A stretch of 32,000 bases of DNA from Candidatus Omnitrophota bacterium (GCA_963662715.1 OY759724.1:2430001-2462000); one strand, 5' to 3'. Positions 363 to 24,122 are shown, numbered from the stretch's first letter. Notes: generated from the sequence alone by a model not told the origin. Program-made: numbers and translations.

Positions 363-1796
363 ATGTCATATAAGATCAAACTCACGTCCTTTGAAAATGC
401 TTCGCTTCTGCGCAAGTTATCAATTTTATATTTTTTGATGTCCATTATCCCCATCGCCTTTCTGTATTTTTTGTACCTGCAGTTGGTGGATTTCGGCCGG
501 ATCACTATTGACGAAGAGAGATTCAGCTCAATATTTTTCCTGGTCGTTCTCGGGGTTGCCGTCGGATATATTGCGATGCGTTCTATTATTGTCAGTATTA
601 TTGATATCACGCGGGAAAACAGAAATGCCTTAAAAGAATTGCTGGGGCCGGATAAGATTAAAGCCCTTTCGGAAGACAGCAGTAACGAAATTGCCATCCT
701 CGCCAAATCGTTTAATGAAATTACGAACCGGCTGGAAGAGAATATCCGGAATCTGGAATTAGCCAAAAGAACGCTGCATTCGGTTTTAGCTAAAGTCGGG
801 GAAGGTATTTCATCCATGGATAATATCGACAGTTTTTTAAGCCTGATCCTGGAAACTGTCACCGAAGCTCTTTCCGCCAAGAGGGGGGTGCTGCTCTTAA
901 GAGATGAAAAGCGGGATGATTTTTATTTGAAGTCCATTTACGGGAAATCCCTTGACAAGACAAAGCAGATCCGTATTGATTTATATGACAGCGTCTTTAA
1001 GGAGGCGGTTACAGCTCATCAGCCCGTTGTTTTGAAGAGTATCCCGAAAGACACGCTGCAAGGCCTTTTGCGCGCTCCGGTCCTTTGCGCTCCGCTGCTT
1101 CTTCACGACCATCCTTTAGGGGTCATAGCCGTTTCGGACAGGGCGACAGAGGAGCCTTTTGATGAGGAGGAAATGAACCTTCTTAACAATCTGGCTTTGC
1201 AGACGGCTGTCGCTGTCGAGAATTCCAGGCTGAACGAAGATGCGGAGAAAACCTATTTTGAGACGATCTCGGCCCTCGCGTTAGCCGTTGAAGCAAAAGA
1301 CCCTTATTCCCGCGGCCATTCTGAGCGCGTTGCGAATTTTTCTGTTATCATTGCTCAGGAAATGGGGTTGACGCAGGAAGATATTATTACTTTGCGTGAT
1401 GCAGCCAAACTGCACGATCTCGGCAAGATCGGGGTCGTTGACAAGATTTTAAAGAAACCCGGGCCGTTGACAGCGCCGGAGATGGAAATGATGAAAAAAC
1501 ATCCGGAAATAGGCGAGGGGATCATTAAGCCGATCCGGTCTTTAAAGAAGCTGTGTGATCTCATTCGTCATCATCACGAAAAACTGGACGGAAGCGGCTA
1601 CCCGGACGGTTTGCTCAGTTCGCAAATTCAGCCGCTTGTTCGTGTCCTTCAGGTTGCGGACATCTACGACGCGTTAACAACGAACCGCCCTTATCGTGAT
1701 CCTTTTACTCCTCAACAGGCGATCGATACATTGAAGTCCATGAAGGACCAGGTGGATATTAAAGTCGTTGAGGTGCTGGAAAGGGTCATTCAATAA
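363..1796 (+). CDS. HAMP-GAF-HD-GYP domain protein, a likely c-di-GMP phosphodiesterase or signalling protein
   Basis: SD-like GAGGTG lies 5 nt upstream of the ATG. There is an N-terminal TM segment. HAMP-like motif NEIAILAKSFNEITNRLEE. GAF-like core LLLRDEKRDDFYL...PLGVIAVSDR. Diagnostic HD-GYP motifs HDLGKIGV and HHHEKLDGSGYPDGL. Confidence 0.9.
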   Translation: MSYKIKLTSFENASLLRKLSILYFLMSIIPIAFLYFLYLQLVDFGRITIDEERFSSIFFLVVLGVAVGYIAMRSIIVSIIDITRENRNALKELLGPDKIKALSEDSSNEIAILAKSFNEITNRLEENIRNLELAKRTLHSVLAKVGEGISSMDNIDSFLSLILETVTEALSAKRGVLLLRDEKRDDFYLKSIYGKSLDKTKQIRIDLYDSVFKEAVTAHQPVVLKSIPKDTLQGLLRAPVLCAPLLLHDHPLGVIAVSDRATEEPFDEEEMNLLNNLALQTAVAVENSRLNEDAEKTYFETISALALAVEAKDPYSRGHSERVANFSVIIAQEMGLTQEDIITLRDAAKLHDLGKIGVVDKILKKPGPLTAPEMEMMKKHPEIGEGIIKPIRSLKKLCDLIRHHHEKLDGSGYPDGLLSSQIQPLVRVLQVADIYDALTTNRPYRDPFTPQQAIDTLKSMKDQVDIKVVEVLERVIQ

Positions 1797-1973
1797 TTAA
1801 AAATACTTTAAGCATGTTATCAAGGGGCCTTGGTCGATGAGGGTTCCTTGTTTTTATGCTTTTGAATCCTCCCCAGTGAGGTATAATACCAGAATAAAAA
1901 TGTTTTCATTCAGAAGCGGATTCCACACCGCTTTTCATGACGCTGTATCCTGAAATCCGCAGCGCAGATTATC

Positions 1974-3221
1974 ATGGGTAAGAAAAAAAAGAAACATCCC
2001 AAAATCAAGAAACCCAAAATCCCTCTGGCAGGGCGCATTGTTCTTGTTTACTATATCGTCCTGATTCTCCTGGTTGTTCTGACGATCCAGATGGGAGAGC
2101 CGGTTTCCGGAAAGGCGGAAGATGCTCCGTTACGCTGGGTGGATGTCATCAGGTTTGTGTATTATATCTTGCCTGTCCTGCTGGCTTTCATGTATGGTTT
2201 TATTTTCCGTCCTTTTTGGTCAAGATTCCGCGATATGTTAGTGGTTATTATTGTGATTCACGGTATTTACAGTTTGTCTGTTTATACTTTCCGGGTGATG
2301 TATTTTGAACATCTGCAAGACGAATCTTTCCGGCTGAAACTGGCGGATTATTCCATATTCCGGGTCCAGCACCGGATGCTGGATAAAAGCAAAGACGGGT
2401 TGATAGACCGGGTTGAATTCAGGGCGAGCCTTGATGCCGCGGAATTTCCTCCCGGGCAGTATGTGATTTATGCTAAAATCACTCAAAGAGGCCAGGAATT
2501 CCCCGACAGTATTATCGGCCGACGGCCGTTTCAGATATTTCCGACGAAACAGAAGCCTTTTAGTGTCTATTTTGCCGCTAACCCGCAGCTCTTTGAGCCT
2601 TATTACGAAAGCGGGCATTTTGATCTTAACCTGGGATTACAGCGGGTTGTGGGCGTCGATGAAACAGGGAAGATGCTGCTGTCTTTGTCGCGCTGGTCGC
2701 CTTTTATCCGTTTTACGAGCTGGGATGGGGAAGACCCGGCCATACAGAACGCTGTTATCGATTTAGACTACCGGGAAAATATAGACTCTTTTTATATTAT
2801 GCCGTTAAAATTTCAGTCCCTGCAGGTCAAACTCGCTGGTCATCTTACGGATTTCGGGGTTGACGAAAACGGGAACGGTTTACTTGATGCCCTTGTGGTC
2901 ACGATCCCGCTGGAATCGGAATATGAAGGGGACATTTTTGTGCAGGCCATTATGAGAGGAGCGGATTATCCTTTGACCTTTAATGAGTACCTGAGGCTGG
3001 GTGATAATTTAATACAAATCACAATCGGTTCCGATTATATTCAGGAAATCGGCCAAAACGGTCCGTACGAGTTGATTGATTTTCAGATTTTCAATCAAAA
3101 TCCTGAATGTTTTGATGAAGAATGTGTCAGGCGTATCAAACCGAATTTTATTTTTTACCTGGATGATTATGTGACAAACCCGTATAAGCTGAACCAATTT
3201 GATGCTTTGGCCGATCGGTAG
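1974..3221 (+). CDS. Hypothetical membrane protein with a polybasic N-terminus and several TM helices
   Basis: 415-aa ORF. N-terminus is MGKKKKKHPKIKKPKIP, followed by hydrophobic segments (IVLVYYIVLILLVVLTI, YYILPVLLAFMYGFIF, VVIIVIHGIYSLSVY). The internal antisense and alternate-frame ORFs are shorter. No domain recognised. Confidence 0.6.
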   Translation: MGKKKKKHPKIKKPKIPLAGRIVLVYYIVLILLVVLTIQMGEPVSGKAEDAPLRWVDVIRFVYYILPVLLAFMYGFIFRPFWSRFRDMLVVIIVIHGIYSLSVYTFRVMYFEHLQDESFRLKLADYSIFRVQHRMLDKSKDGLIDRVEFRASLDAAEFPPGQYVIYAKITQRGQEFPDSIIGRRPFQIFPTKQKPFSVYFAANPQLFEPYYESGHFDLNLGLQRVVGVDETGKMLLSLSRWSPFIRFTSWDGEDPAIQNAVIDLDYRENIDSFYIMPLKFQSLQVKLAGHLTDFGVDENGNGLLDALVVTIPLESEYEGDIFVQAIMRGADYPLTFNEYLRLGDNLIQITIGSDYIQEIGQNGPYELIDFQIFNQNPECFDEECVRRIKPNFIFYLDDYVTNPYKLNQFDALADR

Positions 3222-3231
3222 GGGGGGCTTT

Positions 3232-3720
3232 ATGAAGAAATGGCTGTCTGTTGTCCTGAGTGCTGCTGTTGCCTTGGGGGCGATAGTCCATGTCTTCCAG
3301 TTTAACCAGGCCAGAAAAGCCCGTTTTTCAGTTGATGTTTTGCAGCGGTATCTTACGGCTTTGGAATTAATTGCGGGGCAGAAAGTTTTATCCTGGTCAG
3401 ATCTTCCGGATTTTGATATTATTTCTCCGGAATACAGTCTGCAGTTAAAGTCTGCTGATCTGAAGAAGTCCCCGATCCAAAACGGGTATGCCTTTGATAT
3501 GCAATGGAACGGGCAGGATAAGTATGTGATTTCCGCTTCTCCTGTCGGGGTGCTGTCTCCCCGGATCGAATACGGGATTACTGAAAAGGGGATCCTCAGG
3601 GAAAACCGGAATGATGTTGACCCCTTGCCTGATACGTATCATGAAGTCGTTTTGTGGACGCCGATAGACCGTATTGAGCAAATCCGGACGAAGAATGTCC
3701 CCGCATATTTGCGGGATTAA
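3232..3720 (+). CDS. Hypothetical protein with an N-terminal signal or anchor segment
   Basis: I prefer the ATG at 3232 (MKKWLSVVLSAAVALGAIV...), preceded by a G-rich SD-like run GGGGGGG, over the listed start at 3199. It follows the previous gene within 10 nt, suggesting an operon. Confidence 0.55.
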   Translation: MKKWLSVVLSAAVALGAIVHVFQFNQARKARFSVDVLQRYLTALELIAGQKVLSWSDLPDFDIISPEYSLQLKSADLKKSPIQNGYAFDMQWNGQDKYVISASPVGVLSPRIEYGITEKGILRENRNDVDPLPDTYHEVVLWTPIDRIEQIRTKNVPAYLRD

Positions 3721-4002
3721 AATTTTTGAAATTATTGTTATAATATGTAAATGATGCTTTGAAGGGTTATTTCTTTACGGATGGCCATGAGTCTGGTATA
3801 AAGAATTTCTGGTCTTGTAGTATGCTGTGAGCGGTGCAGATGTTTTTAGCCTGGATAGCTGTTCTTTGTTGTCTCTGTCTGTTCTTTTATTCGTGAGACT
3901 CGTTTTTATCTGGGCATGCCTGAGGGGGAGTCGGCCTGCAAGATAAATATTTTTATCCAGTTGAGATATTTTTGTGCCAATTATTTGTCAGGAGAAAGGG
4001 AT

Positions 4003-4554
4003 ATGATGGCGAAGAGAATTATTCTGGTGATTTGTTTGTTTTTATTCGGAGTCTCTGTGCCGGTCTTTGCCAACGAGATTGATATTTCTGTGCAGGGAAG
4101 TGTTTTTGATCAGAATAATGAATATTTTATGGATTTTGGTCAGATTCTTTCAAGAATTAAAAAAATGGACGAGGAGATTCCCGTACAGGCCGAATATGAG
4201 ACCGAGGCCCAGTATGAGGCAAGAATTCAGCCTTTTAAAGATAAGTTGGCAGAAATTTATGATTCGGAATACAATGTTTCACTTAAACCCAAAAGTTTCC
4301 CTTACGGAGAGGGTAAGGAATTTTACCGGTTTGTTCTGCGGTTCCCTTTCGCTATTTACAGAAAGGATGATTTTTCCAAGACAGAATCATTAGAATACGT
4401 GTATGAAGTCCCTTATAATGATGTAAATACTATCGCAGGGAAAATGGCCAATATGAAATTCATGCTGTACTTTAAAATTAAAGAAGACAAGACCGTGTCG
4501 ATTCGCAGAGCCGTGTTGATTGTTGATAATAAGAAAGTCCATGAATGGGACTGA
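4003..4554 (+). CDS. Secreted hypothetical protein
   Basis: AGGAGA SD lies upstream of the ATG at 4003. The signal peptide is MMAKRIILVICLFLFGVSVPVFA. The listed start at 3916 has no signal peptide or SD. Confidence 0.6.
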   Translation: MMAKRIILVICLFLFGVSVPVFANEIDISVQGSVFDQNNEYFMDFGQILSRIKKMDEEIPVQAEYETEAQYEARIQPFKDKLAEIYDSEYNVSLKPKSFPYGEGKEFYRFVLRFPFAIYRKDDFSKTESLEYVYEVPYNDVNTIAGKMANMKFMLYFKIKEDKTVSIRRAVLIVDNKKVHEWD

Positions 4555-4625
4555 GGAAAGCCCATGATGGACAATTGAATATATAAAGCCCCCCATAAGA
4601 ATCAACCAATAAACGGGAGGGAAGA

Positions 4626-5423
4626 ATGAAAAGGAACATTTGTTTTGTCGCGTGGCTTCTTATGGGTGTTGTTATGTGGGTGGGTGAAGCAGGGGCCTGT
4701 AAAACTATTGCTCCGGAAGTGATGTCTAAAGGAGTCCAGTTTGTCCGGGAGAGAAAACCTCAGGAAGCGATTAGGGAATTTAATAAAGGGTTAGCGGACG
4801 GTTATCATAACCGCGGTGAAGCCTACCAGATAGCGGGCCGCTGGAATGAAGCGATGGCAGATTATAGTAAAGCTGCCATCTTGAACCCGAATGATTCACG
4901 GCCTTTTTACGGCCGGGCGCAGTATTATGCGGTGCAGGGGAGATTCGTTGATGCTCTGGAAGAATTAAACAGAGCCATTGCTATTAATGATTCTTCTTCC
5001 AAGGGGTATGTCCCGATGAGGGCCTGGATTTATGGCATGACCGGGGAGCTGGATTTTGCCCTTAAAGACTACAATCGTATTCTTGCGAATATTCCTGTGC
5101 AGCAAAAAAAGCCTATATATTTAGCCCAGCGCGGTTTTGTTTATTATTATAAAGGTGATTTTGAGAAGGCCTTGGCTGACTTCAATGCCGCTCTTAGTCT
5201 TAATCCCGGTGTGACTTTTGCGTATTTTGGACGGAGTTTGACTTATGCCATGCTGGGCCAGCAGGAAAAGGCTAAGGCTGATCTGGAGAGAGTCCGCCAG
5301 ATCAATGACGGGCTGGCCAGGCATTACTGGCAAAGGTCCAAAGATCTTCGTCATTATGGCCTGAAGAAAAAAGCGGACGAATATATAAAGTACGCGATTA
5401 TGATAGATCCTTCGTTAAATTAA
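4626..5423 (+). CDS. Secreted TPR-repeat protein
   Basis: GGGAGGG SD. Signal peptide MKRNICFVAWLLMGVVMWVGEAGA. Repeated 34-aa TPR signatures are present (e.g. YHNRGEAYQIAGRWNEAMADYSKAAILNPND, FYGRAQYYAVQGRFVDALEELNRAIAIND, YLAQRGFVYYYKGDFEKALADFNAALSLNP). Confidence 0.8.
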   Translation: MKRNICFVAWLLMGVVMWVGEAGACKTIAPEVMSKGVQFVRERKPQEAIREFNKGLADGYHNRGEAYQIAGRWNEAMADYSKAAILNPNDSRPFYGRAQYYAVQGRFVDALEELNRAIAINDSSSKGYVPMRAWIYGMTGELDFALKDYNRILANIPVQQKKPIYLAQRGFVYYYKGDFEKALADFNAALSLNPGVTFAYFGRSLTYAMLGQQEKAKADLERVRQINDGLARHYWQRSKDLRHYGLKKKADEYIKYAIMIDPSLN

Positions 5424-5473
5424 ATAAATTAAAGGGCTAAATTAAAGGACCAGTCCCCAAAAAGGGACAGGGC

Positions 5474-6168
5474 GTGGTTGGCCCGCTGTGCTGAATAAAA
5501 TTTGTGGAAGCGGGCACATTCTGGAATACGTTTCTGCGAAGTTATTGAAGGATATTGTTGATTACTGCTATTTCTGGAGAGATGCGAGAGTGGTTGGCCC
5601 GCTGTGCTGAATAAAATTTGTGGAAGCGGGCACATTCTGGAATACGTTTCTGCGAAGTTATTGAAGGATATTGTTGATTACTGCTATTTCTGGAGAGATG
5701 CGAGAGTGGTTGGCCCGCTGTGCTGAATAAAATTTGTGGAAGCGGGCACATTCTGGAATACGTTTCTGCGAAGTTATTGAAGGATATTGTTGATTACTGC
5801 TATTTCTGGAGAGATGCGAGAGTGGTTGGCCCGCTGTGCTGAATAAAATTTGTGGAAGCGGGCACATTCTGGAATACGTTTCTGCGAAGTTATTGAAGGA
5901 TATTGTTGATTACTGCCATTCATGGAGAGATGCGAGAGTGGTTGGCCCGCTGTGCTGAATAAAATTTGTGGAAGCGGGCACATTCTGGAATACGTTTCTG
6001 CGAAGTTATTGAAGGATATTATTGATTACTGCCATTCATGGAGAGATGCGAGAGTGGTTGGCCGATTGAGCTGGGATGACGGCTTGACAGATTTTTGAGG
6101 AAATCGGCACATTCTGGAATACGTTTCTGCGAAGTTATTGAAGGATATTGTTGATTACTGCCATTCAT
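5474..6168. repeat. Tandem array of 116-bp units, each made of a tRNA-Ser leader, the first 21 nt of tRNA-Ser and a 7-bp-stem hairpin
   Basis: Unit starts (GGAGAGATGCGAGAGTGGTTG) are at 5576, 5692, 5808, 5924 and 6040, spaced exactly 116 bp apart. A partial unit spans 5474-5575. The last unit is a 129-bp variant. The genuine tRNA starts at 6169 with the same 21 nt. Units are near-identical apart from the leader variant CTGCTATTTCT versus CTGCCATTCAT. Confidence 0.92.
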
Positions 6169-6257
6169 GGAGAGATGCGAGAGTGGTTGAATCGGGCGGT
6201 CTCGAAAACCGTTGTGCCTTTTAGGTACCCAGGGTTCGAATCCCTGTCTCTCCGCCA
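6169..6257 (+). tRNA. tRNA-Ser (anticodon CGA), class II with a long variable arm and encoded CCA
   Basis: Manual cloverleaf. Acceptor GGAGAGA/TCTCTCC. D-stem CGA/TCG with a GG-containing loop. Anticodon stem GCGGT/ACCGT with loop CT-CGA-AA. Variable arm GTGCC-TTTTA-GGTAC. T-arm CAGGG-TTCGAAT-CCCTG. Discriminator G followed by CCA. Confidence 0.9.
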
Positions 6258-6266
6258 TATAATTTT

Positions 6267-6318
6267 AGGAACTCGTAACATATTGATTGCATTTATGTTA
6301 CGGGTTCCTTTTTCTTTT
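6267..6318 (+). terminator. Rho-independent terminator of tRNA-Ser
   Basis: 15-bp stem AGGAACTCGTAACAT / ATGTTACGGGTTCCT with one G.U pair and a 13-nt loop, followed by TTTTCTTTT. Confidence 0.8.
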
Positions 6319-6450
6319 AGAGTCGCTTTAGTGCCCAAACTGAGCCTAGACATCAAAAGTATATATTAAGGTAAAAGTGAGTTGTCATTCGACAAGTCTG
6401 GAATTTGGTCCCAAAGAGTGGAATTAGAGGATAAGAAATTTTTTATCAAA

Positions 6451-6520
6451 GTTAAAAAAAGTCAACAGGAAGTATAGCCAGCCTATACCATTTTATTCAA
6501 ATTGGAATATAATAGGACAG
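6451..6520 (+). promoter_or_regulatory. Conserved ~70-bp upstream element, copy 1, containing a TATAAT-like box
   Basis: Ungapped alignment to 15631-15700 gives about 50/70 identities, including GTTAA-AAAAGTCA, CAGCCTATA and ATTTTATT..AATT..ATATAATA. It lies about 80 bp upstream of the lectin gene start. Confidence 0.35.
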
Positions 6521-6600
6521 ACTTTTTGAAATAGTTGTTAGTCTATCGGGGATAAGGTAAATTTAAAACAATAAAATAAGTGCAGACAAAGGAGATTAGA

Positions 6601-7218
6601 ATGAAAAAACTATTCTGTAATTTTCTTATTTCATTTTTTATATTTGCGCTGTCTCAGTCCGCTTCAGCGATGCCGGTCATTTGGAGTGGAAACGGACATG
6701 CTTATGAGCTTATTTCTTCAAATTTGACATGGCAGGAGGCCAGGGCAGCCACCCAAACACTCACGGCCCCGGAGGGCTTTCAACAGGGACATTTGGCCAC
6801 ATTTTCAGATGCGGAGGAAGAAAATTTTGTTATATCTTATTTTGGAGATGAGTTAAGTGGCGCATGGTTCGGTTTTACGGATGAATTACTAGAGGGAGAG
6901 TGGAGATGGATTGATGGGACTCCAGGTATTTGGCAAGATCCGGACAACTTTTCTGCTCCTATCCAAACCGCATATACCAACTGGCGTCCCAGTACGAGCG
7001 AACCTAATAATGAGCTTGGGGAAGATTATGCCGTCTTTTCCCTTTTCGATACCCCTGTTTTAAAATGGAATGATTTGGATAATGACAGAGGATTTTACGA
7101 CGGTTATTTGGTCGAGTATAGCCCCGGTTCACCGGTTATCCCGGAACCGACCACCTTGTTTATGTTTAGTGTGGGAATAACAGGTCTTTGTTTCCATAGA
7201 AAAAGTCGGCTACCATAG
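6601..7218 (+). CDS. C-type lectin domain protein with a PEP-CTERM sorting signal
   Basis: AAGGAG SD lies before the ATG at 6601. Signal peptide MKKLFCNFLISFFIFALSQSASA. CTLD hallmarks are WQEARA, GHLATFSDAEEENFV, WFGFTDELLEGEWRWIDGTP, an EPN motif and a WND motif. The C-terminus has PEP, then a TM segment (TTLFMFSVGITGLCF), then a basic tail HRKSR. Confidence 0.85.
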   Translation: MKKLFCNFLISFFIFALSQSASAMPVIWSGNGHAYELISSNLTWQEARAATQTLTAPEGFQQGHLATFSDAEEENFVISYFGDELSGAWFGFTDELLEGEWRWIDGTPGIWQDPDNFSAPIQTAYTNWRPSTSEPNNELGEDYAVFSLFDTPVLKWNDLDNDRGFYDGYLVEYSPGSPVIPEPTTLFMFSVGITGLCFHRKSRLP

Positions 7219-7353
7219 AGTAAAGGCCTATCACTGTCCGGACAGCAAGAAGCCGTCAGAGATCGACGCTGTTTAGTGTATATGTTGAAATATTAATAGT
7301 TTATCCCCGATGATGCCAGGTCCATTGGTGGAAAAGATTGGCCAGCATAATCT

Positions 7354-8322
7354 ATGAAAAGCAATTTAGATAATCTTGTCGAAGATCTAAAAACCTCCAA
7401 TTTAGCTGTATTCGTTGGCGCTGGTGTGACTTGTGAAGTTACGGGTGTTACATGGAAAGAACTTGTGTCGAATTTGCTGAAGAGCGCTGTCAATGCTTTC
7501 TTTGCTGGGGAACGGGATAAAGGCGACCCTGATGAACTGATATCTTGGCTGGACCGGAAGAAAAAGGATTGCTCTTTTACACAATATGAACAAGCGACAT
7601 TAATTAGGCGTTTTTGGGGCGACCAGTATTTGTACCGCTTACAGGCTGAAATATATAAAAAGCAAAGAAGTTTTTCAAAAGAAGAGTTGCCTAAATACCC
7701 TATGCTTCAAAGAGTCGCAGAGTTATGCCTTCGCCGTGCTTCCGTTGTAATTAATTACAACTATGATTTTTTCCTGGATCAGGCCATGAAGGCCCTTGAG
7801 CAAGACGGCCCGCAAACCGAAATCATTTTTGGGCCGGTAGACCTGAGGAAGAAAGTGTCTGTGAAAAAGAGGATGTTGCCAGTTTATCATGTCCATGGCA
7901 GATTGGTGCCGAGTGAGATCCCACCCAACGGGGTCGAGGCGGCCATAGTACTATGTCAGGAAGATTATTTTAAGATGATGCTGGAGCCATTTTGCTGGCA
8001 AACCGTCACGCAGGTGCAATGCTTAAGAGACTATACTTGTCTTTTTGTGGGAACGTCATTAACCGATTTGAATATGCTGCGAATGCTGCAGCATGCTTAT
8101 GCGTATAAGGCTACCCATAGTGCTTATGTTGTTTTTTCTGCCGATAATTTGGTTAAGGATAGAAAGCTTAAGAAAATGAAACAAAGGGTTTATTCTACCT
8201 TATTGGATGATATGGGAGTGCGGATTATTTTAAGTGACGGCGGCTTATCGCAACTGCCACAAAAAATTGAAGAGTTAAATAACCGGCTGGACAAGGAGGT
8301 GCTGTCCAATGACCAAAAGTAA
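7354..8322 (+). CDS. SIR2-like (SIR2_2 family) protein, a putative NAD+-consuming effector
   Basis: Motifs appear in canonical SIR2_2 order: LAVFVGAGVT (Rossmann GAG), VINYNYDFFLDQ (TTNYD-like, Asn retained), VYHVHGRL (LHG-like, His retained), IVLCQEDY, and LFVGTSLTDLNMLRML (FxGxSLxD). The protein is 322 aa and is essentially the SIR2 domain alone. Confidence 0.8.
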   Translation: MKSNLDNLVEDLKTSNLAVFVGAGVTCEVTGVTWKELVSNLLKSAVNAFFAGERDKGDPDELISWLDRKKKDCSFTQYEQATLIRRFWGDQYLYRLQAEIYKKQRSFSKEELPKYPMLQRVAELCLRRASVVINYNYDFFLDQAMKALEQDGPQTEIIFGPVDLRKKVSVKKRMLPVYHVHGRLVPSEIPPNGVEAAIVLCQEDYFKMMLEPFCWQTVTQVQCLRDYTCLFVGTSLTDLNMLRMLQHAYAYKATHSAYVVFSADNLVKDRKLKKMKQRVYSTLLDDMGVRIILSDGGLSQLPQKIEELNNRLDKEVLSNDQK

Positions 8323-10171
8323 AAAAAGTTCACCACAGCAAAAAACTAAGGAAGCAATGAGTCAAGTTAAGTATAAGACGGATGTGCAAGGCCTTGATGA
8401 TATTTTGCGAGGCGGGTTTGAATTGCCCCCTCAAGAAGAGGCAAAGAACAATGCCAGTTTATTAGTTTTAATTAAAGGGGCTTCCGGTACGGGTAAAACT
8501 ACCTTGTCTCTGCAAATAGCATGCAGTGCAACAAAGTGGCCAGAGAAATTCCATAAGGATGTTTTGTATTTCAGCTGTGAGCAGACGCATCAGGATATTT
8601 ATTTTAAGTGCCAGCAATTAGCTTTACAGGCTAAAATACCAAGCGGGCCAAATGATGTCTCCCCGGAAGCAGGGATCGCCGTTCAGGATATTAGCAGTCT
8701 GTCTGAAGTCACGGGTGAACAGCCGTTCGAAAGTCTCAGTTCCACGCTCACTCGTGCGAATGGCATATTTGATAAAATTTCAAAGAAAAAAAGCAGATCA
8801 AGACTGATTGTTGTAGACGGATTAAACGCGTTGACACAGAAAGAACGGGAGCTGTTAGAAATTCAGCGCCTACTTAAGCTTCTGCGTCAAAAAAGCTTAG
8901 TCAGTATAATCGTTTTTGAGGAGGCTCATGAGACGGACGCGCTGGATTATTTGGTAGATATGGTTATTGAAATGACGGGGAATGACGCAGAGAATGAGTC
9001 TGAATATTTTATAAACCATCTCCGTATTTCAAAATCAAGATATCAACAGAGCGCTTTGGGGTGGCATCAGTATAAAATCCGAGGTCGCAAGGAGGGGAAA
9101 AAGCCAAAAGATGATGGACAGTATTTAGGGGTGGAAGTCTTTCCCTCGCTTCATTTTCATGTTCATAAGACCCCCAACCATGTTCACGATGAAATGATGC
9201 GTTCCTGCTTTTCGGTTGTAGATCCCCGAGTTAGAGAAGAGGCCGTCCCTGAATATATAGAAGATGATGCTTCTATTATTTCTTTTTTGCTGAATTTTGG
9301 CACGACTGAACATCCGGTATTTAAACGCGGTAGTTCAACGGCGATTCTCGGCCCAAGACAAACCTTTAAAACTCAGCTGACATTGGATTTTTTGAGGGCT
9401 GGATACGAGAAAAACGAAAGCGGTTTATTGTTGTCTCTTATGGATAACCCCGGAGACATAAGAAAAGAAAGAGAGAGTTTATGTAAACGGTATTGCTTAA
9501 AAGAAGAAAGATGTGCTGATTGGAGTGCTTGTTATAAAAATGTCTATAATTTTCACTTTCGGCCGGGATGTATTTCTTCCTCAGAATTTTTTCAAAAAAT
9601 GGAAGCCAGACTGGATCTCTCCGAAAAAAAAGAAGAAGATGTCCCCGTAAAGAGGCTGGTCCTTTGGGATATGACGCAGATTGAATACCGTTTTCCATTA
9701 ATGAAAGCTGATGAAATGTTTCTGCCCGCCCTAATGGATTATCTTAAATATTCTAAAAATAGAAATGGAGCTAATAGGAAAATCACTTCTGTTTTTATGG
9801 GGGCGGCTAACACCCCTTTAGCTGCCGCCGCTTCGACAATGGCAGACAATGTTATTTTTTGCTGGCAAGATACATTGACAAGGCAAAATGCGGTAACAAT
9901 AGAAAAAGAACTCTTCGATGGGATCGATGGGATTGCCCTTTATTTGGATAGGATTGAGGGAATTCCCAGTGAAAGCCGAATATTTTTTCTTAAAATGAGA
10001 GAAAAAAAGAATTCAGCATACGTGGATATTGATACTAGGACTAAAAAACAATTGGAAGAGCGTATTACGCTGGTTAAAGATCTGCAAAATTTGCTTAATG
10101 CGCAAGACCCAATCGAACAAATCCGGCGGAAGCATGGTTTTGTTACGTCTATGGACTTAAAGCTAAAATAA
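8309..10171 (+). CDS. Double-domain KaiC-like (RecA-superfamily) ATPase with an intact N-terminal domain and a degenerate C-terminal P-loop
   Basis: The ATG at 8309 overlaps the SIR2 gene by 14 nt. N-domain motifs are GLDDILRGGF...LVLIKGASGTGKTTLSLQIA (Walker A at 8477-8500), VLYFSCEQ (the KaiC 'sfEE' position) and RLIVVDGLNAL (Walker B). The second domain has SSTAILGPRQTFKTQLTLDFL (9350-9373, where the Gly before Lys is replaced by Phe) and KRLVLWDMT. Confidence 0.75.
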   Translation: MTKSKKSSPQQKTKEAMSQVKYKTDVQGLDDILRGGFELPPQEEAKNNASLLVLIKGASGTGKTTLSLQIACSATKWPEKFHKDVLYFSCEQTHQDIYFKCQQLALQAKIPSGPNDVSPEAGIAVQDISSLSEVTGEQPFESLSSTLTRANGIFDKISKKKSRSRLIVVDGLNALTQKERELLEIQRLLKLLRQKSLVSIIVFEEAHETDALDYLVDMVIEMTGNDAENESEYFINHLRISKSRYQQSALGWHQYKIRGRKEGKKPKDDGQYLGVEVFPSLHFHVHKTPNHVHDEMMRSCFSVVDPRVREEAVPEYIEDDASIISFLLNFGTTEHPVFKRGSSTAILGPRQTFKTQLTLDFLRAGYEKNESGLLLSLMDNPGDIRKERESLCKRYCLKEERCADWSACYKNVYNFHFRPGCISSSEFFQKMEARLDLSEKKEEDVPVKRLVLWDMTQIEYRFPLMKADEMFLPALMDYLKYSKNRNGANRKITSVFMGAANTPLAAAASTMADNVIFCWQDTLTRQNAVTIEKELFDGIDGIALYLDRIEGIPSESRIFFLKMREKKNSAYVDIDTRTKKQLEERITLVKDLQNLLNAQDPIEQIRRKHGFVTSMDLKLK

Positions 10172-10270
10172 AAAGTGCCAGTCCCCAAGAAGTTTTTAAT
10201 ATTGAAGTACAACATATTCGTTTCATTAATATCACTATAAATTTTTTTGCCATCTTGAGGAGGTGTCAAA

Positions 10271-10654
10271 ATGCGATGGGTTAAGACATTGATTTCGGTT
10301 CAGCTAATTTTTTCTCTGGTCGTTGTTCAATCAGGATGTTCCTTTTTAGCTCCGCGTAGACAAAGCTTTTCAGTTATTGCCTCAGAAGAAGACGCAGAAA
10401 TTTATATTAACGGTGAATTTATTGGACAGGGTAATGTGGAAACAAGAGTCCCGCGCAATAAAGATGTTTCTGTTATGGTAAAAAAGGAGGGGTTCCGAAC
10501 GACAACGCGTGAAATTGGCACGACAATAAGTTCTGTGGGAATTTGTGATATGATCGGAGGTTACGTTTTTCTTCTCCCTTTATTCGGTTTATTAGCCCCG
10601 GGATTTTACCACCTAGATCGGGACAATATTTCTATTGTAATTCATGAAGAATAA
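10271..10654 (+). CDS. Small PEGA-domain-like envelope protein, possibly a lipoprotein, with a C-terminal hydrophobic segment
   Basis: GAGGAGG SD. N-terminus MRWVKTLISVQLIFSLVVVQSGC (lipobox-like SGC). PEGA-like core AEIYINGEFIGQGNVETRVPRNKDVSVMVKKEGF. C-terminal hydrophobic stretch GGYVFLLPLFGLLAPGF. Confidence 0.6.
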   Translation: MRWVKTLISVQLIFSLVVVQSGCSFLAPRRQSFSVIASEEDAEIYINGEFIGQGNVETRVPRNKDVSVMVKKEGFRTTTREIGTTISSVGICDMIGGYVFLLPLFGLLAPGFYHLDRDNISIVIHEE

Positions 10655-10764
10655 AAGCCCTTTTTTCTGGATAATGGAGCAAGTAAATTTTCTGGAGTAC
10701 TTAATAGGAACGTTAACTTTTTAGATGCTTAGGTCATTCCTGAAAGCCGCGAGTTATTTATCCA

Positions 10765-11337
10765 ATGATTGTTAAATATAAAGATCTTAATAACTATGGA
10801 TTACATTGCAAGAGGATTACTCGCAGAAAATTAAATGTCTTGTGTTTTTTTGGATTATTTGTTTGTGGATGGCTGTTGTTGTGGGTTTTGGAGGGTCTTG
10901 GGAAGAAGAATCTTGGCTACAAGTATTTATTACTTCTTGTTATTTCCTTTACAGTCTCTTCACATGATTTAAGTCCCATTTCATTGGTTGCTCTTGCCAT
11001 TTATATTATTGGATGGATACACGCAAACTTAATTCTTTCAGGTTATCGTAAGTTGGCAGCAGAACGTATTATTCAGATTGATTCTCTGAAAAAGGAAGAT
11101 ATCTCCATTGATGTCGTTTTAGAAAAAGGAATGCTGCAGTCTAATGTTTTACTTGAACCTGAGGCAGCGATAACAAGTTTGATGCAAGGGCTTGCTATGC
11201 CTGGAGGTGAGCCTAAATTATTAAATATGGCAGGAAGAATTTTGTTGGCAAATAACAGGGAAGAAGAGGCAGAAGAATTTTTTAATAAAGCAACCTCAAG
11301 AGTTAAAGAGAAGAGGGCGCAGCTTTTACCAGTTTGA
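10765..11337 (+). CDS. Hypothetical membrane protein
   Basis: 190-aa ORF with TM-like segments (VLCFFGLFVCGWLLLWVL, LLLLVISFTV, LVALAIYIIGWIHANLIL) and a TPR-like C-terminal tail. No clear SD, and the start is uncertain. Confidence 0.45.
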   Translation: MIVKYKDLNNYGLHCKRITRRKLNVLCFFGLFVCGWLLLWVLEGLGKKNLGYKYLLLLVISFTVSSHDLSPISLVALAIYIIGWIHANLILSGYRKLAAERIIQIDSLKKEDISIDVVLEKGMLQSNVLLEPEAAITSLMQGLAMPGGEPKLLNMAGRILLANNREEEAEEFFNKATSRVKEKRAQLLPV

Positions 11338-11429
11338 CAATATTTGATCTTTGGATTAGAAATTATTTTGGGGCCCGCTTTTAAGTCTTTTGAATGGGTG
11401 ACTATAAGAAAAGAATTTAAGCAGATAAT

Positions 11430-11825
11430 ATGTTTAAAAAATTAATCATCATTTTTTTAGTGATTGTCGGAATGTTAATGTTGTCGGTGCACTTATATAG
11501 AAAAGAATTGCAATCACGAAGCCCGACACTTGAAGAGTCTTTAAGTAGCGAACGATGGAAACAAAAGGTGGCAGGAGATGAATATCTTACATATAATAGT
11601 AAACGCAATATTGAAGAAGGTATGTCCGATGGTCTCTTTTTTCCTTGTCCAAAAGGATACGATTGTGAAAGGCTGGTCCCGAAAGAATATAAGACAGAAG
11701 GGCAGAATATTATTTTTGACGAATGTGAGGTAAATGAGTGCATGAATCTTTTGCGGAAGACTGTTTATGCGTATGGTGTAGATGATATTGATGAATATTT
11801 GTCTGAAAGAAAGATCTGGGAATGA
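11430..11825 (+). CDS. Hypothetical protein with an N-terminal membrane anchor
   Basis: N-terminus MFKKLIIIFLVIVGMLMLSV followed by a Cys-containing soluble region. The competing antisense ORF 11417..11743 looks low-complexity and unlike a real protein. Confidence 0.45.
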   Translation: MFKKLIIIFLVIVGMLMLSVHLYRKELQSRSPTLEESLSSERWKQKVAGDEYLTYNSKRNIEEGMSDGLFFPCPKGYDCERLVPKEYKTEGQNIIFDECEVNECMNLLRKTVYAYGVDDIDEYLSERKIWE

Positions 11826-12044
11826 TCAACATAAAAAAGGGAAGGGAGGAAGGGGCTAGTTTCCCGGGTTGTCCATTTAACCATTTTTTAGTGCCTAAAA
11901 GGTGCCCCTTTGACATCAAACCGTTTGCACTTCAGCGTAACGGGATGTAAATCTTCGCACAACAAACAGCAGCCAGAGATCGAGGCTATTTTTCATAAGT
12001 GCTTGAAGAACATAAATTTGTTATCGACGAGATAGAGGTAAATC

Positions 12045-12746
12045 ATGTCTGTTGAATTAACTAAATATGCGACTTTGGAACATACCAAAAATCATGTTCA
12101 TATTGAATTCAATGTTCCTCATCAAGTAGCTAGTTCAGCAGTACTTAATGGTGGTATGGTTCAAGCGAACCATATTGTTAATATGAAGGTTCCCAAAACT
12201 TCCCAGTGCACAGAGTCTCCGGATTTGACTCTTTTAAATTATTGTAATGATTTTGGTTGGAGTGGAACTATTGTTGGAATGATGACAGCTGCATCTATGA
12301 ATTCTTTTCGAATCATGAAAAAGTCGGAACAAGGCATTGACATTGTGGTTTTAGTTACATCCGGTCTTTCTAATCCAAGACGTGTGGGTGATTACGCCGA
12401 ATATAGACAGATGACTTCTCATATCAAAGAAATTGGTACAATTAATGTGATTGTGATTACTTCTGCAAAGCTAACAGGGGCAGCTATTATAGAAGCTTTG
12501 TTAATAGTGGCAGAGGCAAAAACTGCAACTTTACAAGAAACGGGAATAATGAGTCCAGTTTCTAACAAGCTAGCAACAGGAACAGGAACAGACTCTGTAG
12601 CCGTTGCTAGTGGTCACGGGCCGGGGGACGTTCAATATTGTGGTAAACATGTTTTATTTGGAGAATTGCTTGGCAGCTCAGTAATTGATGCCGTGTCCTC
12701 TTCAATACAATGGGAGATCAGAAACAAAACCAATAAGTATAGATAA
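12045..12746 (+). CDS. CbiZ-like (adenosylcobinamide amidohydrolase family) protein
   Basis: Motifs I recall from the CbiZ family: SSAVLNGG near the N-terminus, GTINVIVI, AEAKTATLQE and ATGTGTDSVAV. Not confirmed by a profile search. Confidence 0.5.
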   Translation: MSVELTKYATLEHTKNHVHIEFNVPHQVASSAVLNGGMVQANHIVNMKVPKTSQCTESPDLTLLNYCNDFGWSGTIVGMMTAASMNSFRIMKKSEQGIDIVVLVTSGLSNPRRVGDYAEYRQMTSHIKEIGTINVIVITSAKLTGAAIIEALLIVAEAKTATLQETGIMSPVSNKLATGTGTDSVAVASGHGPGDVQYCGKHVLFGELLGSSVIDAVSSSIQWEIRNKTNKYR

Positions 12747-12901
12747 TAAGCCGTATCAGGATAGCTAACAAGTGCATTTAGTTGACCGCAATCGTCTCCG
12801 GGTGTGCCACAGTGCGATGTTCCTGGTACAATCATCTTTGAGCCAGCGTTAACGCAGCGGCAACTGATGTCAGTTAGCCCTTACCATAAAGGAGATGATA
12901 A

Positions 12902-13402
12902 ATGAGGAAATTACGAATTTATTTATTTGTATGGTTTATTTTTGGGCATATTTTTGCATTAAATGTTAGCGCTAATGAACCGACAGGCCAGAATATTAAT
13001 TCTCAAAAAAATGTTATGTGTGAAATAAAAATAGTAATTTTTGAACATGATAAAGAGAAAAGGGTTTTTAGATATTATTTTAATAATGCAGAAAATAGGA
13101 AATGGAAGTATTTAAATGGGCATGCAAAACCGTATAAGTCTAAAGAAGATGGAGAAGTTAATTATATAGATATAGGCACAAAAATATATGTTAATCACAG
13201 AATAAAAGATGATTTAAATATATTGCAATCGAAAGTTGAAATAGTCTATGTTGACAGTTATTTAAATGAGGATATTCCAATCGTCAACACTATAGAATAT
13301 GACGGTACAAGTGTTCACAACAATAACGCATTTCAAAATGTATTTAATGGCGAACTTTCGATTGAGAATCAAAGGGTAGAAATTTTTATTAAAGTAAATT
13401 AA
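12902..13402 (+). CDS. Secreted hypothetical protein in a very AT-rich gene
   Basis: AGGAG SD. Signal peptide MRKLRIYLFVWFIFGHIFALNVSA. Composition is Asn/Lys/Ile-rich. The gene is visibly more AT-rich than its flanks. Confidence 0.6.
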   Translation: MRKLRIYLFVWFIFGHIFALNVSANEPTGQNINSQKNVMCEIKIVIFEHDKEKRVFRYYFNNAENRKWKYLNGHAKPYKSKEDGEVNYIDIGTKIYVNHRIKDDLNILQSKVEIVYVDSYLNEDIPIVNTIEYDGTSVHNNNAFQNVFNGELSIENQRVEIFIKVN

Positions 13403-13634
13403 AAAGGCTAGCAAATCATTTCAGCTGTCGCGGCCTGCGCACGGGGACGCAAATCCTTGGAATCTATTTGAACGAGGAGCCTGAAAGCTCATGCAAATGA
13501 GCAGGGAAGCGATTGAAAGAATATTTTTTCATATAATAAGGTATAATGAAGTATATCAAGAAGAAATATTGAATCTCAGGCAGTTGATTTTAACGTGAAA
13601 TAATTGTTAGGCTTAAGAACGAAGGAGATAAGGG

Positions 13635-14063
13635 ATGGAAGTGGAAATTTTTGCCCTGTGCGATGCCGCAACCGATTCCGCCGGCAAACTCAACATACTG
13701 GGGGCCTTCGACAGAATCGGCACGCGGCAGTTCCCCGCCGTACATATGCACTGCGCCATAGCATTGCGTATCCGGTTTGAACGAATTGAAGAAGGCCATC
13801 ATCGCGTCCGAATTAACTTCGTCGATGCTGACGGTAAATCGATAATGCCGAGTATTGGCGGGAATATCGGGGTGAAGTTCCCTGATGATGTCCGTTCTGT
13901 TTGTGCAAACCTGGTCCTGAATATCAATGGGCTGAAGCTGGAATCGGCCGGTCAGCATTCGATCGACCTGGCCATTGACGGCAGACATGAAAAATCCCTT
14001 CCTGTCAACGTGATCCCGGCGAAAGGCGCCCAGCGGCCACCCGAAGCCAACGGTGCTGTATGA
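13635..14063 (+). CDS. Hypothetical cytoplasmic protein, beta-rich in appearance
   Basis: AAGGAGA SD lies 6 nt upstream of the ATG. I prefer it over the fully overlapping antisense ORF 13590..14081, which has no SD and a poor start context. Confidence 0.6.
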   Translation: MEVEIFALCDAATDSAGKLNILGAFDRIGTRQFPAVHMHCAIALRIRFERIEEGHHRVRINFVDADGKSIMPSIGGNIGVKFPDDVRSVCANLVLNINGLKLESAGQHSIDLAIDGRHEKSLPVNVIPAKGAQRPPEANGAV

Positions 14064-14107
14064 TAATAGATGAGAAAACATTAGAAAAACCTTGAGAGGG
14101 GGAAAGC

Positions 14108-23246: not shown

Positions 23247-24122
23247 TTATCCTTCAGTCGTCGTGTCTGTCCAAGGGGCTGTAGGAGCAGTCGGTCCATT
23301 AGGTGCTGTTGGTTCGTTCGGTCCGACCGGAGCGCTAGGTCCTACGGGTTCGTTCGGTCCAACCGGAGCGCTGGGTCCTACGGGTTCGTTAGGTCCGACC
23401 GGAGCGCTGGGTCCTACAGGCTCGTTCGGTCCAACCGGAACGCTAGGTCCTACGGGTTCATTCGGTCCGACCGGAGCGCTAGGTCCTACGGGTTCGTTAG
23501 GTCCGACCGGAGCGCTAGGTCCTACGGGTTCGTTAGGTCCGACCGGAGCGCTAGGTCCTACGGGTTCATTCGGTCCAACCGGAGCGCTAGGTCCGACAGG
23601 TTCGTTAGGTCCGACCGGAGCGCTGGGTCCAACGGGTTCGTTCGGCCCGACCGGTTCATTCGGTCCAACCGGAGCGCTAGGCCCGACCGGTTCGTTCGGT
23701 CCAACCGGAGCGCTAGGCCCGACAGGTTCGTTTGGCCCCACCGGAGCGCTAGGTCCTACGGGTTCATTCGGTCCAACCGGAGCGCTAGGTCCTACAGGTT
23801 CGTTCGGTCCAACCGGAGCGCTAGGCCCGACAGGTTCGTTTGGCCCCACCGGTTCATTCGGTCCAACCGGAGCGCTAGGTCCGACAGGTTCGTTTGGCCC
23901 CACCGGTTCATTCGGTCCAACCGGAGCGCTAGGTCCGACAGGTTCGTTCGGTCCTACAGGTTCATTCGGCCCCACCGGAGCATTTGGTGAGTTCGGCTCT
24001 GTTGGCGGAACAGGTTGTGCTGATGTCGTAGTGTAGAGAACGAAGGAAACAACACACAACACTACGAAAGAACAGCCCATGAGCATTTTGGATTTTCTTA
24101 GCTTTGTTAAATTTTGGAACAT
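23247..24122 (-). CDS. Secreted proline-rich protein built of about 40 tandem hexapeptides (PNEPVG / PSAPVG)
   Basis: On the minus strand GAAGGAG lies 5 nt upstream of the ATG at 24122. Signal peptide ...[29 protein letters not shown]|QP. The terminator lies just past its stop. The repeat is P-x-x-P-V-G throughout. Confidence 0.75.
23300..23985. repeat. 18-bp / 36-bp tandem DNA repeat underlying the Pro-rich protein (approximate bounds)
   Basis: Iterated GGTCC(G/A)ACCGGAGCGCT(A/G)GGTCC(T/G)AC(G/A)GGTTC(G/A)TT(C/A) units. All three + frames and the - frame stay open across it. Confidence 0.9.

Follow-up and report, generated by a model that had tools for sequence, protein, structure and literature searches.

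What does a bacterium do with a gene for a small SIR2 protein that runs into the gene for a KaiC-like ATPase? Such a pair lies at positions 7354-10171 of a 32,000-nucleotide (nt) stretch of genomic DNA from a Candidatus Omnitrophota bacterium (GCA_963662715.1 OY759724.1:2430001-2462000), which we call the window. A first-pass annotation, made from the sequence alone, had proposed that the pair is an undescribed defence system that depletes nicotinamide adenine dinucleotide (NAD+). We followed up this proposal by profile searches, structure prediction, and comparison of relatives. We consider it fairly probable that the pair is a two-gene, translationally coupled anti-phage conflict module of the abortive-infection type. 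The evidence comes from the clade to which the SIR2 protein belongs, the conserved pairing of the two genes, and the replacement of the SIR2 gene by other partner genes in distant relatives.

Organization of the gene pair

The SIR2_2-family gene (7354..8322) encodes a protein of 322 amino acids (aa) with a SIR2 domain only, the predicted NAD+-hydrolysing (NADase) effector. The gene of the tandem KaiC-like ATPase (8309..10171) encodes a protein of 620 aa, the predicted sensor or regulator. Both are on the plus strand, as are all features of the pair described below, and the two open reading frames (ORFs) share 14 nt (8309-8322). The two ORFs, their coordinates, the overlap, and the ATG at 8309 are all present exactly as the first-pass annotation gave them, and every SIR2 and ATPase motif quoted there was located, among them K63, the lysine of Walker A, at 8495-8497.

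A strong Shine-Dalgarno sequence, AAGGAGG (8293..8299), can be read 9 nt before the ATPase start codon and within the SIR2 coding region. Because of this internal AAGGAGG and the ORF overlap, the two genes are arranged for coupled translation. A terminator scan 3' of 10171 gave none that was convincing, and therefore co-transcription of the pair with the PEGA gene is possible.

The SIR2 protein groups with antiphage sirtuins

The first-pass annotation had classed the 322-aa protein as SIR2_2 type and suggested a profile search. In Pfam, SIR2_2 (PF13289) matched it with 51.7 bits against a gathering threshold of 24.5 bits (E = 1.3e-13), in agreement with that assignment. The first motif, FVGAGVT (aa 20-26), contains the GAG of the Rossmann NAD-binding motif (G22-A23-G24; 7417..7425), of which G22 and G24 are invariant. 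It is followed by NYNYD (aa 134-138; 7753-7767), YHVHG (aa 178-182; 7885..7899), and FVGTSLTD (aa 231-238). Within NYNYD, N136-Y-D138 (7759..7767) holds the putative catalytic Asn and aligns to TTNFD of FAM118B, and YHVHG, with the putative catalytic His H181, aligns to LHIHG of the same protein.

Among 17 syntenic partners, that is, SIR2 proteins encoded beside a family ATPase, the invariant residues include G22, G24, N136, D138, H179, H181, G182, G233, S235, D238, and R243, and the same positions are kept in 29 wider homologs. A single-sequence search had given 3 homologs only, so that a profile search was required. With N136 and H181 invariant among the partners, the putative catalytic Asn and His look as intact as they did at first pass. 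A His at a position like that of H181 has been reported to be important for the activity of ThsA and SIRT2 (PMC12700824).

The best matches of the partner profile in the PDB were FAM118B (E = 1e-18), ThsA (E = 8e-14), KomC, and DSR2, all of which are immune NAD-processing sirtuins (PMC12700824). The AlphaFold2 model of the SIR2 protein was confident (predicted local distance difference test [pLDDT] 84, predicted template modelling score 0.85). In a Foldseek search with this model, the best 50 matches were all antiphage SIR2s (ThsA, KomC, DSR2, SPARSA, and HerA-bound SIR2), with HerA-bound SIR2 only at ranks 43 and 47, and no classical sirtuin was among these 50.

Matches of the SIR2 protein to PADLOC models were weak. 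Those of ThsA spanned only the SIR2 part, that of Dsr1 covered profile positions 14-223 of 1227, and that of LmuA (PDLC03856; E = 1.9e-5) extended over nearly the full length; the PADLOC models of the HerA-partner 'SIR2' did not match the window SIR2. By analogy with the relatives found in the PDB, these results suggest that the 322-aa protein would act as an NADase effector, as opposed to an enzyme with another NAD-consuming activity.

The first domain of the ATPase is a complete KaiC/RadA-type domain

KaiC (PF06745) of Pfam matched the N-terminal half of the 620-aa protein with 68.3 bits against a cut-off of 26.6 (E = 8.2e-19). This half carries GLDDILRGGF (aa 28-37), GASGTGKT (aa 57-64), and RLIVVDG (aa 165-171). 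A KaiC/RadA-like N-terminus, as claimed at first pass, is thus borne out by a Pfam match above threshold and by the presence of Walker A, the catalytic Glu, and Walker B.

Conservation, which we took from a profile of 20 homologs, and hidden Markov model alignment to KaiC delimit a catalytically complete KaiC/RadA-type P-loop domain at about aa 20-262 (8366..9094), hereafter domain 1. In its Walker A, GASGTGKT (8477-8500), G57, G60, G62, and K63 are at least 90% conserved in the family. E91-Q92 (8579-8584), with E91 invariant, occupies the position of the catalytic Glu pair of KaiC, and D170 of Walker B (8816-8818) is invariant as well. K242-x-R244 (9032-9040), both residues of which are invariant, aligns with the K/R region of KaiC; by analogy, K242 and R244 would act in trans as fingers, and the active site would then be oligomeric. 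We take the K-S-R-F/Y-Q motif of the ATPase to resemble KNRFG of RadA. Domain 1 ends with a signature of the family, LGWHQYK (9056..9076; L250-K256), which is invariant in the 20 homologs and served as our search pattern for loci.

In the PDB, the 20-homolog profile matched clock KaiC, archaeal KaiC-like proteins, FlaH, and RadA via domain 1 only, with a best E-value of 1.5e-15. The score for the NCBIfam KaiC equivalog was far under its cut-off (55.8 vs 408). None of the HerA, DUF87, or other PADLOC defence models fitted the ATPase in the Pfam and PADLOC searches. Fusions of SIR2 with the ATPase had been suspected in homologs of 835-1002 aa, in which Pfam recognised KaiC only, with large insertions in domain 1.

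Weak matches of RadA and DnaB profiles to domain 1, together with the KNRFG-like motif, raise the question of whether the pair repairs or processes DNA. The ATPase would then be a RadA/Sms-like ring translocase on DNA, assisted by SIR2 as a nuclease or a factor that depends on NAD. Nuclease activity has indeed been reported for the SIR2 of SIR2-HerA (PMC11472057). The ATPase has neither the zinc finger nor the Lon-like domain of RadA, however; the distribution of the family, described below, is rare and patchy rather than conserved, and the membrane proteins and HD-CE proteins that substitute for SIR2 in some relatives would be ill-suited to repair. We therefore regard a DNA-processing pair as very improbable, and the defence reading is preferred in what follows.

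The second domain is KaiC-like by predicted fold

The second, degenerate KaiC-like domain of the first-pass annotation is supported by predicted fold but not by sequence comparison within the protein. The AlphaFold2 model of the ATPase (mean pLDDT 75.7) matched full-length two-domain KaiC in Foldseek with E = 8e-24 over about 580 columns, both halves being covered, and the top matches were all KaiC. The template modelling scores (TM-scores) of the model against KaiC were low, 0.3-0.4, which probably reflects a differing relative orientation of the two domains in the model. Alignment of domain 1 with domain 2 by hhalign stayed below significance (E = 0.15). The profile of domain 2 gave sub-threshold matches only in the PDB, of which the top one was the P-loop region of KaiC (E = 0.026) and another was the P-loop of F1-alpha. 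Here and below, P numbers denote family proteins and their contigs, and L numbers denote family loci in genomes or metagenomes. In two relatives, P0087 and P0110, the Pfam KaiC match falls within domain 2.

By conservation and Foldseek, this domain extends over about aa 325-565 (9281..10003). Its P-loop reads GPRQTFKT (G348...K354-T; 9350-9373), in which a bulky residue replaces the second Gly, and SLMDN (9434-9448) stands in place of the catalytic Glu pair. Further marks are a Walker-B-like W453-D454 (9665-9670) and D547-R548 (9947-9952). Five Cys residues, C392, C396, C402, C408, and C421, form a cluster (9482..9571), with C408 invariant and conservation of 90% or more at C392, C402, and C421; judged from the sequence, the cluster may bind metal. 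Domain 2 as a whole may be a degenerate domain with a nucleotide-binding or regulatory role.

The pairing is conserved in many phyla

An exhaustive profile search returned 449 representatives of the ATPase family (E <= 1e-30; clusters at 50% identity), and a word-indexed search returned 38 clusters only. With at least 449 representatives, the family is uncommon without being tiny. The LGWHQYK pattern, run against species-representative genomes and metagenomes, gave 41 loci. A SIR2 homolog stands immediately upstream on the same strand at 22 non-redundant loci with upstream DNA present, and the same order was seen in six further contigs that were looked up independently (P0002, P0020, P0014, P0032, P0035, and P0036). 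The arrangement thus occurs at about 28 independent loci in at least 10 phyla, so that the pairing is syntenic in relatives, as would be expected if the two genes formed one system in the way first proposed.

From the SIR2 stop to the start of the ATPase gene, relatives mostly have between -29 and +84 nt. When flanking ORFs were clustered all against all, no gene besides these two proved to be conserved. Pairwise distances among the SIR2 proteins correlate with those among the ATPases (r = 0.84, Mantel p = 2e-4, 15 pairs), and because the proteins co-vary in this way, we conclude that the two genes travel and diverge together.

The hosts include Planctomycetota (Pirellulales, and an anammox contig with hydrazine synthase), Nitrospirota (Nitrospiraceae), Hydrogenedentota, Myxococcota, Polyangiaceae, Calditrichota, Cloacimonadota (Cloacimonadales), Verrucomicrobiota, Opitutia, Bacteroidota, Armatimonadota, Actinomycetota, and Anaerolineales. 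The relatives are only 25-47% identical and are patchy over many phyla. Low identities and many scattered phyla fit horizontal spread better than vertical inheritance.

Some members of the family depart from the common form. At L010 (8943-12532), in a metagenome-assembled genome of Draconibacterium, the SIR2 and ATPase genes are each split into at least two ORFs, and this copy is probably decayed or frameshifted in assembly. The long relatives P0145, a Metallophos-KaiC-like fusion, and P0129 resemble generic KaiC homologs more.

Other partners replace SIR2 in distant branches

At five Bacteroidales loci, SIR2 is replaced by a protein with 6-8 predicted transmembrane (TM) segments, whose gene lies downstream of the ATPase gene in tight linkage. 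These proteins are homologous to one another, and neither Pfam nor PADLOC gave them an identity. The two most distant ATPase members (24-25% identity) are preceded by a gene of PF24391, HD-CE. At L027 (2-1639) and L028 (6053-8221), an Mrr_cat_2 nuclease and ResIII are fused to domain 2 of the family (query residues 275-548), and the ResIII helicase N-lobe part corresponds to the N-terminus of the PADLOC type IIG restriction endonuclease-methyltransferase (E = 1.5e-148). Because of these fusions, domain 2 appears able to function apart from the KaiC-like domain 1. In gut Bacteroides loci, the ATPase is flanked by SIR2 on both sides.

A constant ATPase combined with interchangeable toxic modules is a hallmark of defence systems, as in HerA with SIR2 or DUF4297, in Lamassu, and in Avs. 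The replacement of the partner in distant branches, in the manner of effector swapping, therefore supports a defence role of the pair, and it had not been foreseen by the first-pass annotation.

Comparison with known systems

The pair resembles SIR2-HerA (Gao_Her_SIR, or 'Nezha'), a two-gene operon in which the gene of a SIR2 NADase likewise stands upstream of that of a RecA-superfamily oligomeric ATPase. HerA also partners alternative effectors such as DUF4297, in parallel to the swapping described above. In SIR2-HerA, the NADase is activated allosterically by complex formation with the ATPase (PMC11472057, PMC11514289).

Given this common logic, one may ask whether the pair is a divergent member of SIR2-HerA. 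The ATPase here is of the tandem KaiC/RadA type, however, and not of the HerA/FtsK type. It has no DUF87 match, the PADLOC models of HerA and of its partner SIR2 match neither of our proteins, and Pfam and Foldseek both say KaiC. The SIR2 protein falls in a ThsA/DSR2/KomC-like clade, and the HerA-partner SIR2 of L051 was missed by our partner profile. Moreover, both systems stand side by side as separate units at L033 and L050-52, where the real SIR2-HerA pair goes undetected by the family profiles. The PADLOC, Pfam, Foldseek, and coexistence results together refute this explanation, to which we assign practically no chance.

The distinction from HerA that the first-pass annotation drew is upheld by the lack of a PADLOC HerA match and by the KaiC identity of all top Foldseek matches. 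It had also placed a KaiC-type ATPase in the position of HerA. The KaiC-like nature of the ATPase stands, but a change from HerA to KaiC within one lineage does not, as the SIR2 clade differs. Because SIR2 belongs to the ThsA/DSR2/KomC-like and not to the HerA-partner clade, its recruitment appears to have been independent.

ThsA of Thoeris, DSR1/DSR2, KomC of Kongming, and vertebrate FAM118B are the closest relatives of the SIR2 protein and have GAG, N...D, and HxHG in common with it. The systems themselves differ from the pair. Compared with Thoeris, our SIR2 is without a SLOG/STALD or Macro domain, and no ThsB/TIR gene was found among the window neighbours or the conserved neighbours of relatives. 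In DSR1/DSR2, one polypeptide of at least about 1000 aa carries SIR2 at its N-terminus and a sensor region at its C-terminus, whereas the SIR2 protein here has 322 aa and is without this DSR sensor region of about 700 aa. The pair is also without the KomA/KomB partners of Kongming, and its constant partner is the KaiC-like ATPase. Lamassu with SIR2-type LmuA is similar in that the LmuA profile matches SIR2 and swappable effectors go with an ATPase; it differs in having SMC-like LmuB with or without LmuC, a gene that is absent here.

By its predicted fold, the ATPase appears to have the same tandem RecA-like architecture as clock KaiC and KaiC-like ATPases (ArlH/FlaH, PH0284, and relatives of RadA/Sms), and its domain 1 has the Walker A, catalytic Glu, Walker B, and a K-x-R region that aligns to KaiC. 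It differs from them in the degenerate P-loop of domain 2 (GPRxTxKT), which also is without the catalytic Glu pair, in family-own signatures (LGWHQYK, ADNVxFCW, and the Cys cluster), and in its genomic partner, which is SIR2, TM, or HD-CE.

The pairing had not been recognised as a named system at first pass, and it has no name in the models of PADLOC v2.0 or in the searchable, subscription-free literature that was covered. In that literature, we found no paper that links KaiC-like ATPases to either SIR2 or defence against phage. An ATPase joined to a SIR2 suicide effector is a known design; the ATPase family and the modular set of effectors appear to be new.

Genomic neighbourhoods of relatives

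The defence context expected at first pass is seen at individual loci of relatives. L033 has a genuine SIR2-HerA pair directly upstream (PADLOC; HerA E = 7e-228, SIR2 E = 2e-140). In L050-52, from Bacteroides gallinaceum (GCA_016901875.1) and gut metagenomes, a five-gene block at about 970-9311 opens with SIR2-HerA and continues with a SIR2 (376 aa), the family ATPase (844 aa), and another SIR2 (436 aa). Of these five genes, the SIR2-HerA pair escapes the family profiles, which pick up the 844-aa ATPase (E = 1.6e-65) and the two SIR2s on either side of it. The 436-aa SIR2 appears in 47 blocks of the contig index, from which we conclude that the five-gene block is probably common in gut samples.

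At L026, a DrmMI/type IIG methylase abuts the pair, PDC-S15 adjoins it at L024, Cas1-Cas2 stands beside the P0037 relative, and the nuclease fusions of L027 and L028 described above belong to the same set of cases. Directly downstream at L049 (5267-11715) are genes for an RdrA-like protein (883 aa), an RdrB-like deaminase (803 aa), a Ham1-like protein, and a ThsA/KomC-like SIR2 of 265 aa. PADLOC v2 gave no name for this whole set, which resembles RADAR or Kongming.

L045 is likewise among these cases and is ICE-like (integrative and conjugative element), with an integrase, a TraG-type coupling protein, and a lysozyme upstream and Metallophos and HATPase_c_3 downstream. Genes for Metallophos and HATPase_c_3 (MORC-like) recur beside a distant branch of ATPases of about 790 aa (L045 12393-16114; L047 2603-4609) and may be extra components of that branch.

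Relatives on ICE-like elements, and others that adjoin HicB, call to mind a toxin-antitoxin or addiction module that stabilises mobile elements, in which SIR2 would act as toxin, the ATPase would neutralise it, and neither would be dedicated to sensing phage. The tight, overlapping two-gene unit and the lower GC content (guanine plus cytosine) after the tRNA gene of the window would be in keeping with it. However, the ATPase, with its 620 aa, two domains, and conserved catalytic residues, does not look like a typical antitoxin, and the window is without an att repeat and, among the ORFs scanned, without a mobile-element gene. Such a module overlaps mechanistically with abortive infection. As a separate explanation, we find it quite unlikely.

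Evidence for and against a role in defence

Several observations weigh against the anti-phage reading. Outside the family studied here, KaiC-like ATPases have, to our knowledge, been described in clocks and signal transduction but not in immunity. SIR2_2 proteins may have other NAD-dependent activities, for example ADP-ribosylation, and the KaiC identity of domain 2 rests on a model of moderate confidence, with the pLDDT and TM-scores given above. The typical defence-island context that the first-pass annotation ascribed to the window was not found: the flanking genes are envelope and metabolic ones, no PADLOC-type or mobile-element gene was present among the ORFs scanned, and the window contains no second copy of the tRNA-Ser 3' end that would form an att-like repeat. 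Nor does such a context hold at most loci of relatives, where PADLOC recognises none of the largest genes beside the pair. The viral contigs of IMG/VR hold no copy of the ATPase family, which we list here and regard as neutral.

Some of these points would favour a non-immune regulatory module, in which a KaiC-like signalling ATPase controls, on a physiological signal, a SIR2 whose cellular target is deacylated or ADP-ribosylated. A signalling role has been proposed for archaeal KaiC homologs, and the PDB matches of the ATPase are all clock KaiC, ArlH/FlaH, or RadA; the ordinary envelope and metabolic neighbours in the window and the absence of recognised defence neighbours at most relatives would also be consistent with this role. 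However, SIR2 matches the clade of immune NADases only, and the best fold matches include no classical sirtuin. The distribution over many phyla is sporadic, and the replacement of SIR2 by TM, HD-CE, or Mrr proteins would be unexpected for a fixed pathway. KaiA and KaiB are absent among the window neighbours and, like response regulators, are not conserved as partners beside relatives. We consider a regulatory module unlikely and retain the abortive-infection module as the preferred reading.

Proposed mechanism and significance

In the proposed abortive-infection module, the 620-aa tandem ATPase would most likely form a ring oligomer, by analogy with its solved relatives. Domain 1 would be the working ATPase and domain 2 a regulatory or docking module, and the protein as a whole would serve as sensor and switch. 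SIR2 would remain inactive up to the point at which the ATPase, through the ATP-dependent activity of domain 1, senses a cue of infection. The ATPase would then license SIR2 to hydrolyse NAD+, as in ThsA, DSR2, KomC, and SIR2-HerA, and the loss of NAD+ would halt growth of the infected cell. The physical complex, the stoichiometry of the ring, the scaffolding of SIR2, the trigger, and phage protection are all proposed by analogy with these systems. Activation might alternatively depend on filament formation or assembly, as in ThsA and FAM118B (PMC12700824).

More tentatively, and with some doubt, we propose that KaiC-type tandem ring ATPases may be the core of an unrecognised modular immune family, independent of HerA systems. 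Its interchangeable effectors would be a SIR2 NADase, a multi-pass membrane protein, an HD-CE phosphohydrolase, or an Mrr nuclease, and domain 2 with its Cys cluster would be the module that receives the signal or docks the effector. If the pair is protective, a double-domain ATPase of the KaiC/RadA type would be a new class of sensor in bacterial immunity and a second, independent ring ATPase that harnesses a SIR2 NADase. The superfamily of the KaiC clock protein would then enter prokaryotic immunity as a sensor or switch, and 'oligomeric ATPase plus swappable suicide effector' would be strengthened as a recurrent design.

Candidate ways for a KaiC-like ATPase to sense infection are DNA threading, a nucleotide-state timer, and phosphorylation. 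The family is concentrated in the poorly studied Planctomycetota, Nitrospirota, Hydrogenedentota, and Cloacimonadota and in gut Bacteroidales, groups from which only a thin repertoire of defence systems is known. For experiments, the version in the cultured Bacteroides gallinaceum would be a tractable place to start.

Surroundings of the pair in the window

The genes that flank the pair in the window encode a PEP-CTERM C-type lectin, a PEGA lipoprotein, a TPR protein, CbiZ, a transglutaminase-like protein, and an HD-GYP/GAF protein. No obvious housekeeping marker was seen in the rest of the window. The nearby tRNA gene mentioned at first pass is tRNA-Ser(CGA) (6169..6257, plus strand), which was found by ARAGORN and by Rfam (53 bits; gathering score 29). 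It lies 1.1 kb upstream of the pair, with the lectin gene between them. An Rfam search of the whole window at the gathering threshold missed this gene, whereas a search of 5400-6400 alone found it. This looks like an effect of filtering, and whole-window Rfam negatives need caution.

The AT-rich stretch described at first pass is so only mildly, with a GC content of 0.415 for the pair and 0.443 for the whole window. From tRNA-Ser to about 14.1 kb, a length of about 8 kb, GC is lower (0.397 for 6258-14100, vs 0.44-0.46) and GC at third codon positions (GC3) is depressed, with the tRNA gene as the upstream edge. The most compositionally foreign gene of this stretch downstream of the pair is the ORF at 12902-13402 (GC 0.267, GC3 0.21), for which no Pfam match was found.

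A tandem array at 5474-6189, consisting of 6.1 copies of a 116-bp unit with 95% identity, runs into tRNA-Ser. Each unit begins with the first ~22 nt of tRNA-Ser(CGA) (GGAGAGATGCGAGAGTGGTTG), after which come a GC hairpin (GCCCGCT...AGCGGGC) and the upstream region of the tRNA, and the last unit runs on into the real gene. The array yields spurious minus-strand ORFs of 68-79 aa. A second repeat region, at 23311-23981, has tandem repeats of 36 nt and 108 nt, with 18.6 copies of the 36-nt unit and a local GC of 0.556. Its plus strand reads as collagen-like Gly-X-Y, and the reading on its minus strand follows a signal-peptide-like N-terminus.

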